Sequence record: NC_008515.1 | Direction: 5' to 3' (one strand) | Source of the DNA: Escherichia phage RB32 | Length of the DNA: 64,000 nucleotides | Shown: positions 4,919 to 10,191 of the stretch, piece by piece | Position numbering within the stretch: position 1 is the first letter of the stretch | How the letters are laid out: every line of letters starts with the position of its first letter | Translations under genes and position numbers: made by a program | Notes under the pieces: generated by a model | What the model saw: the letters and a program-made list of their open reading frames with translations, nothing else | The model's database searches: none | What the model was told of the DNA's origin: nothing

Positions 4919-5434
4919 TTAAAGCAAATTAAACATTTTAACAGTCGGCAAAACAATTTCTTTTTCTATATAAGAGTATTTAACACTCTCAACTACACGC
5001 AGAAAATCATAATCATAATATTCAGAAGCACTGCCTAAAATATTAATAAGTCCTTCAAACACTTTATTACCATTCACAAAGAATAAATCAAATACACGTT
5101 CTTCATCTTCTTCGGATTTATTACCAAGGTCAACTTCTATATCAAAGACCTTTTTAATGAATTCTGGATAAAGTTGGTCTGAGAACAGTCCTTCAACCAA
5201 GTATTCATAAATAAAAAGCGATTGCTCGCTGAACAAGCCATTACCACAATAACGTTCAGCTTTAGTACTAGAATGTCTGCTTTTAAACTTCTTTAAAAGA
5301 TATTGAAATTGTAAGATTTCATGCTCTTCTACGCCAAACAGTGTTTTAGTTTTATAGTTGTCACCATCATTTTCCCAGGTAGTGACATCAATTACGTAAC
5401 CCTGCGGAATTGTAGTACCTAAACAAATATTCAT
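4919..5434 (-). CDS. Hypothetical protein, 171 aa (last gene of a 4-gene operon)
   Basis: ORF track; start overlaps the stop of the upstream gene. Confidence 0.6.
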   Translation of the reverse strand: MNICLGTTIPQGYVIDVTTWENDGDNYKTKTLFGVEEHEILQFQYLLKKFKSRHSSTKAERYCGNGLFSEQSLFIYEYLVEGLFSDQLYPEFIKKVFDIEVDLGNKSEEDEERVFDLFFVNGNKVFEGLINILGSASEYYDYDFLRVVESVKYSYIEKEIVLPTVKMFNLL

Positions 5435-5727: not shown

Positions 5728-6137
5728 TAACCTCTATCAACAATAGCATGAGTATGGGCATTTACAATTTGCCACCAGTCGAAACGATTAGAACCATATT
5801 CTGGTTTATTTTCATTTTCTTTAATGATATCACGCAGTTTATCTTCTGTTTCAGCATACGCAATTAAATCATCATACCCACCACAAGGATAATAATTATC
5901 ACCTGCGAATAAAAGAAAATTTACCTTAGATGGATTTACGTAATAATGGTCTTTAGGATATTTAGTTCCTCTCCAATCAGTTACTTCAACATAACGGTAA
6001 GAAAATCCATTTTTACTTTCAATCCAACTCCACGCTTCAAAAGGAGTATTAAAAACTCTATCAGGTATTAAATTACCTTCAAAATGAGAAGGATTTGCAT
6101 AATCCCCGGCATAAACATAATATTCGTTAATACTCAT
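5727..6137 (-). CDS. Hypothetical protein, 136 aa, aromatic-rich
   Basis: ORF track; abuts the upstream 61-aa ORF with no gap. Confidence 0.6.
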   Translation of the reverse strand: MSINEYYVYAGDYANPSHFEGNLIPDRVFNTPFEAWSWIESKNGFSYRYVEVTDWRGTKYPKDHYYVNPSKVNFLLFAGDNYYPCGGYDDLIAYAETEDKLRDIIKENENKPEYGSNRFDWWQIVNAHTHAIVDRG

Positions 6138-6323
6138 TTATTCACCTTTAGAAATTTTATCCATAACGATAGCAATTAAACCAATTAAAAATGCTACTAC
6201 AAGTGAAAACACATTTTCTGCTGTAGTTAATAATCCGCATATAAATCCAACAAACATTGAAAAACTAAAAGCAGAAGCAGAAATTGCAATAGCAACATTT
6301 CGAATTAATTCACAACGTTTCAT
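6138..6323 (-). CDS. Small membrane protein, 61 aa, two predicted TM helices
   Basis: Hydrophobic segments AIAISASAFSFSMFVGFICGLL and FSLVVAFLIGLIAIV; first gene after an early-promoter module. Confidence 0.5.
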   Translation of the reverse strand: MKRCELIRNVAIAISASAFSFSMFVGFICGLLTTAENVFSLVVAFLIGLIAIVMDKISKGE

Positions 6324-6391
6324 TTTATTCTCCTCAGTAGTTGATAGGGTAATAGTATCACTACCCCATCTAAAAGTAAACGGTTTATAAA
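6324..6391 (-). promoter_or_regulatory. Repeated early-promoter module (variant A) with SD, upstream of the 4-gene operon
   Basis: Reverse complement: GTTTACTTTTAGATGGGGTAGTGATACTATTACCCTATCAACTACTGAGGAGAATAAAATG; near-identical copy at 7035-7104. Confidence 0.5.
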
Positions 6392-6700
6392 CTATTTTAT
6401 TCCGCGTGATGCAATTGTGTTCTGCCGTTTAGCACCAGTTTGTTTAAAATCATGATTGTCGATTTGATCGGTACGAGCAACTCCGAATGATGATTTGATT
6501 TTAGCTTTAGATCCTTTAGTTATAGAAATAAACATCTCGGAAGCCCCTTTCTTAAAGTCCGAGGCGATTACTTCAACGCCGTTCTTAGCAAGTGACTTCA
6601 GAATTGCCTCAGCATACTCATCGTCAAGACTCGCCTGAGTATTAATAACGAATGTCTTTGGCGCAGCCGCTTCATTGATAAATTCTTTAAATGTTTTCAT
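6392..6700 (-). CDS. Internal-protein-like protein with capsid targeting sequence (MKTFKEFINEA), 102 aa
   Basis: N-terminal CTS with (I)NE|A cleavage motif; own early promoter; at the T4 ipI locus position. Confidence 0.7.
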   Translation of the reverse strand: MKTFKEFINEAAAPKTFVINTQASLDDEYAEAILKSLAKNGVEVIASDFKKGASEMFISITKGSKAKIKSSFGVARTDQIDNHDFKQTGAKRQNTIASRGIK

Positions 6701-6761
6701 TTTATTTTCCTAATTAATTTTTGATGAGATAATAGTATCACTACCCTATTTAAAAGTAAAC
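6701..6761 (-). promoter_or_regulatory. Repeated early-promoter module (variant B)
   Basis: -35 GTTTAC and TGATACTAT -10 on minus strand; shares AATAGTATCACTACC core; near-identical copy at 7363-7434. Confidence 0.5.
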
Positions 6762-7034
6762 TCATTTTAAATAAATTGCGTATTTTTTATAACCCGCTGA
6801 CTCATGACGAAGACCCTTATCATTAGCAAAACGCTCAATGTTGTTAATTTGATTCTGATCAAGTTCAGAGATGTCAAACACGAAAAAGTTACGTTTGTTA
6901 CCAACTGTTATATAGTCAGTTAAATCAATATCATATAGGTAATTGATGTCAGCAATCAAAGTCTTGACAGCTTTGCTAATTTTTACTTTTTCGTTAAAAG
7001 CAGCTTCAGAAATAAATTCTTGATACGTTTTCAT
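6762..7034 (-). CDS. Internal-protein-like protein with capsid targeting sequence (MKTYQEFISEA), 90 aa
   Basis: N-terminus almost identical to the canonical T4 IP targeting sequence; ISE|A cleavage motif. Confidence 0.7.
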   Translation of the reverse strand: MKTYQEFISEAAFNEKVKISKAVKTLIADINYLYDIDLTDYITVGNKRNFFVFDISELDQNQINNIERFANDKGLRHESAGYKKYAIYLK

Positions 7035-7104
7035 TTTATTCTCCTCAGTAGTTGATAGGGTAATAGTATCACAGCTAAAACCCTATGTAAACAACTTTGT
7101 GAAA
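7035..7104 (-). promoter_or_regulatory. Repeated early-promoter module (variant A copy)
   Basis: CTCCTCAGTAGTTGATAGGGTAATAGTATCAC ... TGTAAACAACTTTGTGAAATTA repeat. Confidence 0.5.
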
Positions 7105-7362
7105 TTACTTTAAATCTTCTAATCGTTTCTTCATCTTAGAACCATTTTTAGCGATTTCTCCTGCATCGGAGCATAATGCTAAAAGCGCTTTAACTTTAGT
7201 TTGGTCTCCTTTAAAAGATGAAGGATCGACTGCAGCAGCAAGTTCTTTAATACGAGAGAAAAGACGCTCAGCTTCAGCTAAAGCCATTCCAAGCTTTACT
7301 TCCATACCGTGGGAAGATTCAGTGATAGTAGTTTTTGTAGCAAACTCTTTGAAAGTTTTCAT
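7105..7362 (-). CDS. Internal-protein-like protein with capsid targeting sequence (MKTFKEFATK...ITE|S), 85 aa
   Basis: CTS-like N-terminus, own early promoter, adjacent to 57B where T4 carries ipI. Confidence 0.65.
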   Translation of the reverse strand: MKTFKEFATKTTITESSHGMEVKLGMALAEAERLFSRIKELAAAVDPSSFKGDQTKVKALLALCSDAGEIAKNGSKMKKRLEDLK

Positions 7363-7434
7363 TTTATTTTCCTAATTAATTTTGATGAGGTAATAGTATC
7401 ACTACCTCATCAGCATGTAAACAACTTTGTGAAA
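7363..7434 (-). promoter_or_regulatory. Repeated early-promoter module (variant B copy)
   Basis: TCCTAATTAATTTTGATGAGGTAATAGTATCACTACC ... TGTAAACAACTTTGTGAAATTA repeat. Confidence 0.5.
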
Positions 7435-8119
<685 letters not shown>

Positions 8120-8120
<1 letters not shown>

Positions 8121-8845
8121 TATAGTACCTTTAGTGTATTTTTAATTTTAGAAAAAAGTTCTTCAAGAGAACCATCGTTTGTAATTACTAAATCGCCATC
8201 ACGAATTGGCAATCCAGCTTCTGTAATATGTGTATCATTGGATTTTTGACCAGGACGAACTACATGAATTACTGTAGCACCCATCGCCCTAGCCGCATCC
8301 ATTTCATGATCTTGACGGGTATCAGGAACGATATAATAATCATAACCTGAGTTAAATTTATCAAGATAATCTAAAGCAAATAATTTTACCCAGTACATGC
8401 GGTCGAAGTTATTAACAATCAAATCCGTACCTAGGGCTTGCATCAGACGACGGACTGACCATTGATCTTCAATATTATTTATAACGTCAATAATCTTGTT
8501 AAATGCTACGGAATTAACTGATTCTTTTCCTTCGTCATCAAAAACAAACACACCTTTAATTGGGCTTTTACCATTAAGATAGCAAAATGCTTGTTCCATA
8601 ATCGTGATTACTTCTAATTTAGTCAGATTTAAATTAGTCTCACGATCATAGTCAATTCCTTCAAACTCTTTACGAGTTAAGCAAGGATAGTCAGTGTTTG
8701 CTGCAAATACTCCCCATGCATAAGCCAATGCATCCTTAATAGGACCAGCAAGTTGGTATTTAACTGCAGAATAATTGCTCATGATAAAATCAGCAGTAGT
8801 ATCTTTTCCACTACGCTTTACACCGCTTAAAAAGATTAGTTTCAT
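8120..8845 (-). CDS. 1: gp1 deoxynucleoside monophosphate kinase
   Basis: P-loop GVKRSGKDTT; start taken at internal ATG with GAGGAG SD, giving 241 aa as in T4 (ORF track has a 13-codon extension). Confidence 0.85.
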
Positions 8846-9531: not shown

Positions 9532-10191
9532 TTAATTTATTAGACTTCTTAAACGAGCAGAAGTCATAAATGGAAATTTTTCTAAAGTTGGCTTTCGCCA
9601 ATATCTTGGATGACAAGTTGATTTAAAATCAAGAACAATTTTCTTTGCTTCATCAATAGTGTTAACTCCAAAGTTATCTAACATTATTTTCTTTTCTTTT
9701 TCCCACCGTTTATTAGCTAAAGCAGATTGAAGCTTTTTGTTTTTAAATGTGTCATTTTTTCTAGAATGAGTTGTTCCTTGTGTCGGACTCCATCCTCTTC
9801 CTAAAATAAATCCCTCAGGAATTATATCTCCATCATGCAATTTTATACATCTTTTACCATTATTATAATATTTTCGTCCAGTTTGTGTATTTGAAATATT
9901 ATTTGCATGTTTTCTTTTTAACCAACCATAAACTTTATTATTTCTCCTAACATATTTAGTTGAAACCGTCATTTTTATGGCTGCATAAGATAATTTTAAA
10001 GAATTTGGGTGTATTTTTACTAATAGCTGATGTGCAACATAATGCTCTTCTGGAGTTAAATCAACCAAGTTAGAAGCATCATTACTACCGCCTAAACATT
10101 TCGGAATAATATGATGTCTTTCTTTATATCCAGTAAGGGCTCTATTGCGAGCCCTATCAATTAGTGAATTATAAATTTTTTCATAATTCAT
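9532..10191 (-). CDS. Freestanding HNH homing endonuclease, about 219 aa
   Basis: HNH/His-Me motif [29 protein letters not shown]; ATG overlaps the gene 2 stop (ATGA); T4 has no gene between 2 and 3 as I recall. Confidence 0.8.

Follow-up and report, generated by a model that had tools for sequence, protein, structure and literature searches.

The ip5, ip9 and ip7 genes of Escherichia phage RB32: a known T-even internal-protein locus whose products are probably injected inhibitors of host nucleases

Three small adjacent genes lie at positions 6392-7362 of the 64,000-nucleotide stretch of Escherichia phage RB32 (NC_008515.1) that was analysed as a whole and is called the window here. Judged from their sequences, they are the already named genes ip5, ip9 and ip7 of the T-even internal-protein class, and the locus is a published one. 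T-even injected internal proteins have long been thought to supply anti-defence functions. By analogy with IPI, IPII and IPIII of T4 and from the literature, Ip5, Ip9 and Ip7 would be packaged into the phage head, cleaved by the prohead protease gp21 and injected into the host, where they most likely act as binding inhibitors of host nucleases. A probability of about 0.72 is given to this reading. It has been held since 1994 and is partly proven for sister proteins. That the array exists, how it is named and built and what its presumed role is were all established before; the sequence was read correctly, but no new biology was added.

The segment holds three open reading frames (ORFs) of 102, 90 and 85 amino acids (aa) on the minus strand, which start with MKTFKEFINEA, MKTYQEFISEA and MKTFKEFATKTTITES, respectively.

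6392..6700, minus strand: ip7, 102 aa; leader MKTFKEFINE (10 residues); predicted mature body of 92 aa, isoelectric point (pI) 9.65.
6762..7034, minus strand: ip9, 90 aa; leader MKTYQEFISE (10 residues, IPII/IPIII type); predicted mature body of 80 aa, pI 8.2.
7105..7362, minus strand: ip5, 85 aa; 15-residue IPI-type leader MKTFKEFATKTTITE; predicted cut after E15, body of 70 aa, pI 9.2.

The array segment is 100% identical to that of phage RB33 (KM607001), whose record notes name the genes Ip7, Ip9 and Ip5; they are flanked there by 57B and trna.4. Against the type proteins of phage RB15, Ip5, Ip7 and Ip9 are 100%, 99% and 98% identical, respectively, and the RB15 record 'DNA for Ip5, Ip9, Ip7, Ip8' is 98% identical over the same stretch of DNA. 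RB15 likewise has ip5, ip9 and ip7, in this order, in the interval from 57B to trna.4 but carries a fourth gene, ip8, before trna.4, which RB33 lacks. All three proteins gave end-to-end matches to PHROG families of 'internal head protein', namely Ip5 to PHROG 3499 (1.2e-49), Ip9 to PHROG 7673 (3.5e-55) and Ip7 to PHROG 2667 (2.1e-41), and a Pfam search with them returned sub-threshold noise only. The RB33 notes and the PHROG matches, together with ipI of T4 and ip5 plus ip7 of T2 in the same slot, therefore identify the array as a named and published locus. The set was reportedly first described by Repoila et al. in 1994, the RB15 record being the GenBank companion of that work. The original prediction, made from the letters of the DNA, had placed here three small adjacent genes with T4-type capsid targeting starts and had taken them for a diversified set. 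The ORFs lie where they were placed and the reading itself is sound; the set is a rediscovery, however, since by that 1994 account the genes already existed as ip7, ip9 and ip5, and the arsenal idea was in print as well. A shuffled arsenal of injected anti-defence proteins is the standard view in the field (PMC3012670, PMC2839356, PMC12373910).

The array occupies the slot in which T4 has its single ipI, as had also been proposed. It is one of the two variable loci of internal-protein (IP) genes, the other being the denV-e region. The slot is bounded by two conserved genes.

7435..7890, minus strand: 57B (Acb1, an anti-CBASS phosphodiesterase), upstream border of the slot; Pfam PF23474 at 2.6e-60; noted '57B' in RB33.
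6138..6323, minus strand: trna.4, a 61-aa predicted membrane protein, downstream border of the slot.

The latter gene has a promoter cassette in common with the ip genes but is devoid of a capsid targeting sequence (CTS). With Acb1, a known anti-defence enzyme is adjacent to the slot of injected proteins. T4 ipI shares with the array its locus, a nearly identical upstream cassette of promoter and stem-loop, and an MKTFKEF... leader that ends in ITE as in Ip5. It differs in being the only gene in the slot and in its product, as the body of the mature protein IPI* is unrelated to those of Ip5, Ip7 and Ip9.

The leaders were searched for with a degenerate DNA pattern, ATGAARACNTWYMARGARTTY, allowing at most one mismatch. 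It matched exactly the three ip starts within the window and was found in none of 100 dinucleotide-preserving shuffles. The gp21-type site (L/I)xE that had been predicted for each leader is present as a motif at the leader ends: INE at residues 8-10 of Ip7, ISE at residues 8-10 of Ip9 and ITE at residues 13-15 of Ip5. The leaders of Ip7 and Ip9 are of the 10-residue IPII/IPIII type, whereas that of Ip5 is longer and ends in ITE like that of T4 IPI. Mature IPI* has 76 residues (PMC3012670), and therefore a leader of 19 residues is expected for T4 IPI, which the longer leader of Ip5 resembles. The predicted cut site of Ip5 is supported by a variant (P0034) that keeps ITE and then the identical SSHG behind a leader of only 10 residues. 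When the three proteins were aligned with IPI, IPII and IPIII of T4 and Ip8 of RB15, only M1, K2, T3 and F7 were invariant, and no similarity was seen outside the leader. Packaging of IPIII requires no more than its first 10 residues, of which positions 4 and 7 serve for targeting and positions 8 and 10 for processing, and a CTS of 10 residues is enough for the packaging of foreign proteins (PMC9026906).

Behind the leaders, the mature bodies are unrelated to each other, in agreement with the prediction: the best pairwise blastp E-values are 0.2-1.2, and the bodies belong to the three separate families PHROG 2667, 7673 and 3499. All three are predicted to be basic, and Ip9 carries an invariant C-terminal motif, NNIxRFANDKGLRHE. 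The likeness to IPI*, Ip2 or Ip3 is confined to the leader, and a sequence search of the PDB with Ip5, Ip7 and Ip9 gave nothing below an E-value of 0.02. Models of Ip7 and Ip9 were built with AlphaFold2 from shallow alignments of 12-16 close sequences. The Ip7 model (mean pLDDT 64) has a beta-alpha-beta-beta core at residues 15-60 (pLDDT about 84) and a basic C-terminal tail at residues 76-102 of low confidence, and the Ip9 model (mean pLDDT 74) has the topology alpha-beta-beta-alpha-beta-beta. Both proteins are predicted to be small alpha/beta folds of a non-enzymatic kind. Foldseek against BFVD returned a single significant match for Ip9, an unnamed viral protein of 535 aa.

The original prediction had also assigned an early promoter to each gene, and such a promoter is found 5' of ip5, ip9 and ip7 and of trna.4 as well. 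The four intergenic regions have a mean column identity of 78% when aligned, and each contains TTTAC(A/T)-N17-TACTAT followed by a ribosome-binding site (RBS) and ATG.

7363..7434, minus strand: cassette 5' of ip5; -35 TTTACA starts at 7421, -10 TACTAT ends at 7393; RBS AGGAAAATAAA.
7035..7104, minus strand: cassette 5' of ip9; early promoter 7091-7063; stem-loop about 7055-7086 (z -2.5); RBS GAGGAGAATAAA.
6701..6761, minus strand: cassette 5' of ip7; early promoter 6760-6732; degraded stem-loop; RBS.
6324..6391, minus strand: cassette 5' of trna.4; early promoter 6380-6352; stem-loop 6343-6370 (z -2.35); downstream border of the array.

All four copies fit the T4/PST early-promoter consensus TTTACW-N17-TAYWAT (PMC4122927). 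On the minus strand of the window there are eight such motifs, half of which fall within the 1.1 kb of the array. This T4-specific consensus was used because the promoter-like sites found by a generic sigma-70 scan were no commoner than in shuffles. Stem-loops across the -10 element fold better than shuffles in three of the four cassettes. The strongest is that of ip5, a 13-bp stem-loop at 7383-7412 (-17.4 kcal/mol, z -3.7) in a cassette nearly identical to that upstream of T4 ipI, while the stem-loop of the ip7 cassette folds no better than shuffles (z +0.31). A late promoter was looked for as well, and TATAAATA does not occur on either strand in 5800-8200; the nearest upstream copy on the minus strand is at 8483, inside gene 1.

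The cassettes are similar to the PeSL (promoter-early stem-loop) shuffling cassettes of T4-type phages, in which a stem-loop likewise overlaps an early promoter. As in PeSLs, the unit recurs between small accessory genes and coincides with the breakpoints of indels, here against T2 and T4 (Arbiol et al. 2010; Comeau et al. 2014). Unlike PeSLs, the repeat of the array also takes in the RBS and the leader codons, and one of its four stem-loops is degraded. 'PeSL-like' elements were described at the two IP loci, with mention of more than 30 IP variants, and the elements of the IP loci are analogues rather than homologues of the PeSLs of RB49, being richer in AT and built on T4 early promoters (Arbiol et al. 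2010, PMC2839356).

Comparison with T2 and T4 placed the recombination breakpoints in these repeated cassettes of promoter, stem-loop, RBS and leader. T2 has the same slot and cassettes and carries ip5 and ip7 at 95-97% DNA identity, but it has no ip9. Homology to T2 extends from 57B across ip5 as far as the first codons of ip9 and is regained in the cassette before ip7; both alignments overlap on the repeat, and the difference is exactly one ip9 unit, with the indel junction inside the repeated promoter/RBS/leader part. Against T4, the match breaks off after about 35 nucleotides of the ip5 leader, and it is regained, at 99.6% identity, with the cassette of trna.4; in T4, ipI takes the place of all three genes between these points. 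The cassette before ip9 (window 7029-7105) is 100% identical over 77 nucleotides to the T4 cassette before trna.4, and ip9 and ip7 seem to have entered between a cassette of the pre-ip9 type and trna.4.

The same slot was surveyed in 36 loci fetched via 57B, of which 34 were counted together with the window (n=35). It holds from none to three CTS genes: none in 5 loci, one in 15, two in 12 and three in 3. These genes form 14 families with unrelated bodies, among which Ip9 is represented by 10 genes, Ip7 by 8 and Ip5 by 3. Even where the 57B and trna.4 proteins are identical to those of the window (L005, L035, L036), the sets differ, being Ip5 plus a 77-aa protein, Ip7 alone, and the 77-aa protein alone. 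The full trio was found in only about three of 50,697 records, those of RB33, VEc74 and RB15. Word-indexed homology searches with Ip5, Ip7 and Ip9 gave close relatives of the Tequatrovirus type only, and identity among homologues within a family is 67-100%. This level of identity indicates diversification by gene swapping rather than by fast point substitution. The term 'rapidly evolving' used in the original prediction is therefore apt for the gene content, which changes by swaps of whole cassettes, but not for the sequences.

One protein of Escherichia phage OLB35 noted as 'ip7 protein' (P0014, 77 aa) is a chimera of the Ip7 middle and the Ip9 C-terminus without a leader, and seems to have arisen by unequal recombination within the array. 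Outside the window, the second internal-protein locus of RB33, beside gene e, has a single 157-aa gene noted as Ip4 (KM607001 62124-62597), and no denV, ipII or ipIII is annotated there. Since the gene e locus has only Ip4, the annotated internal-protein set of RB33 consists of Ip4, Ip5, Ip7 and Ip9 and includes none of the three of T4.

The body of Ip9 also belongs to a wider family. An exhaustive profile search gave 14 proteins, which have the motif NIER...G.R.EP.G.KK.A conserved. Among them, P0041, P0043 and P0044 carry CTS-like leaders, and P0038, P0039 and P0045-P0048 carry none and lie on contigs too short for gene context. An 861-aa phage protein (P0042, PHROG 3867; L043 8001-10586, a phage-like contig) also contains an Ip9-like domain, at residues 663-733. 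As a thread weaker than that of Ip5 given below, this family suggests that the CTS may capture anti-defence modules that existed before.

The leaderless relatives and the mobility of the cassettes raise the question of whether every gene of the array is packaged. As part of the repeated recombination cassette, the leader could be passed on even if packaging is not selected for. At least one of the proteins might then stay in the cytoplasm of the producing cell or be idle, with the leader as a mere passenger. The remote Ip9 relatives and the chimera P0014, all devoid of a CTS, as well as the exclusively early type of the immediately upstream promoters, would be in line with this. On the other hand, all three leaders are complete and in frame, with conservation at the positions for targeting (4 and 7) and processing (8 and 10), and the 10-residue CTS suffices even for foreign proteins, as noted above (PMC9026906). 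The early-only promoters are no argument against packaging, because T4 ipI has the same arrangement and is packaged. We regard an unpackaged product as very improbable.

The preferred reading, that of packaged and injected nuclease inhibitors, would proceed as follows. Each gene would be transcribed from its own T4-type early promoter, and its product would be led by the N-terminal CTS into the prohead's scaffolding core. There, gp21 would cut off the leader after Glu10 in Ip7 and Ip9 or after Glu15 in Ip5. The small basic mature proteins would lie in the packed DNA and be ejected with it into the cell, where each most likely is a stoichiometric binding inhibitor of one host nuclease attacking the incoming DNA with its glucosylated hydroxymethylcytosine. 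The likeliest kind of target is a modification-dependent type IV restriction enzyme. The array itself is assembled and rearranged by recombination between the almost identical cassettes that separate the genes.

The relatives with a known target support this picture. Ip1, Ip2 and Ip3 of T4 were shown to inhibit GmrSD type IV nucleases, each a different one (Silas et al. 2025, PMC12373910), and Bas37_0260, a 77-aa CTS protein of this very slot, inhibits McrBC (bioRxiv 10.1101/2025.11.20.689424). The activity of IPI* against the GmrSD of E. coli CT596 has been shown for that protein and not for Ip5, Ip7 or Ip9. For these three, the words of the original prediction, 'candidate injected anti-defence effectors' with uncharacterised targets, still describe current knowledge.

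Phage Bas37 (KarlGJung, MZ501089) provides a direct hint for Ip5. Its protein Bas37_0261 (145863-146120; L042 677-934) is 100% identical to Ip5 and lies with Bas37_0260 between 57B and trna.4, both with a CTS. The two slots differ in that Bas37_0260 (ipVI in phage PST) is absent from the window, which has ip9 and ip7 instead. Bas37_0261 is non-essential on K-12, where 18 of 18 TA sites were disrupted (bioRxiv 10.1101/2025.11.20.689424). Ip5 is therefore dispensable on a laboratory host by way of the identical protein, and the presence/absence polymorphism of all three genes agrees with this. The supplementary resampling tables of the same HIDEN-SEQ preprint compare insertions on each other host with K-12. 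On the uropathogenic E. coli CFT073, insertions in Bas37_0261 have a log2 fold change of -2.09, about a 4-fold depletion (adjusted p printed as 0.00000). The values for CFE299 (-0.01), CFE303 (-0.01) and CFE336 (+0.26) are not significant. CFT073 carries a GmrSD homologue, c5421 (PMC4437046). It is conceivable, although the odds are against it, that Ip5 is an injected countermeasure to a specific defence of CFT073, for example c5421. If this is true, Ip5 would become the first of the three proteins with an assigned target.

The dispensability on K-12 also fits another role, in which the small basic proteins are a generic DNA-associated filler that neutralises charge and aids the packing or ejection of DNA, their diversity being neutral drift in a dispensable slot. 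T4 heads contain about 1000 internal protein molecules with lysines contacting the DNA phosphates (PMC3012670), all three mature bodies of the array have a pI of 8.2-9.7, and the screen against GmrSD enzymes described below yielded no target. Conservation of 67-100% within families and invariant motifs such as that of Ip9 are not expected of filler, however, and five of the 35 loci do without any CTS gene in the slot. Moreover, the four characterised relatives (Ip1, Ip2, Ip3 and Bas37_0260) all hit specific nucleases, and the defect of Ip5 mutants is specific to the host. A filler role is hence considered unlikely.

Several points weigh against the reading as nuclease inhibitors. No target is on record for Ip5, Ip7 or Ip9. 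When ip4-10 were tried against five further active GmrSD systems, there was no reproducible inhibition (PMC12373910), and apparent hits of ip7, including that with CLS_011, and of ip8 were not reproducible (PMC12373910, Supplementary Fig. 9 legend). T2, despite having both ip5 and ip7, is restricted by the GmrSD enzymes of ECOR21 and ECOR17 (PMC12373910) and by that of UTI89 (PMC4437046); since a phage with both genes is restricted, these three enzymes are presumably not targets of Ip5 or Ip7. The structure models, coming from so few and such close sequences, are of moderate confidence. The depletion of Bas37_0261 on CFT073 goes undiscussed in the main text of the preprint, and the neighbouring 57B is likewise depleted there (-1.56). 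Because this adjacent gene is affected too, a local or polar effect may account for the depletion of Ip5, and the CFT073 value is to be taken as a lead and not as a result.

The negative outcome of the GmrSD panel for ip4-10 and the restriction of T2 by three GmrSD enzymes could also mean that the proteins are injected effectors aimed elsewhere than at type IV restriction, at abortive infection, toxin-antitoxin or nucleotide-signalling systems or at an early host process. The array adjoins the anti-CBASS enzyme Acb1, and Alt, another packaged protein of the CTS type, is an ADP-ribosyltransferase involved in the evasion of Mokosh (bioRxiv 10.1101/2025.11.20.689424). Yet every Ip of known target hits a modification-dependent nuclease, and the GmrSD family is far more diverse than the tested panel (PMC12373910). 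The host in which Ip5 matters, CFT073, has its own GmrSD homologue, and the predicted folds of Ip7 and Ip9 have no enzymatic features. A target of another kind is therefore somewhat improbable, although it is the most serious competitor to inhibition of type IV enzymes.

Two other features of the window were observed apart from the array. At 9532-10191, between genes 3 and 2, there is a gene noted in RB33 as 'putative site-specific intron-like DNA endonuclease'; no gene is present at this place in T4 or T2, and it is probably an insertion of a free-standing homing endonuclease. At 4919-5434, the tRNA cluster and trna.2 are separated by a 171-aa ORF (RB33_136) that corresponds to the same gene in T2 (T2_138) and is absent from the annotation of T4.

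The question of the targets of Ip5, Ip7 and Ip9 is real and testable, but it predates the observation of this array. Injected internal proteins are the first molecules of the phage to meet host immunity, and the ipI slot amounts to a natural collection of them, four members or relatives of which have proved to be specific inhibitors of modification-dependent nucleases. Once found, the targets of Ip5, Ip7 and Ip9 would probably reveal new nuclease variants or defence systems, and they would help to foresee which hosts therapeutic T4-like phages can infect.

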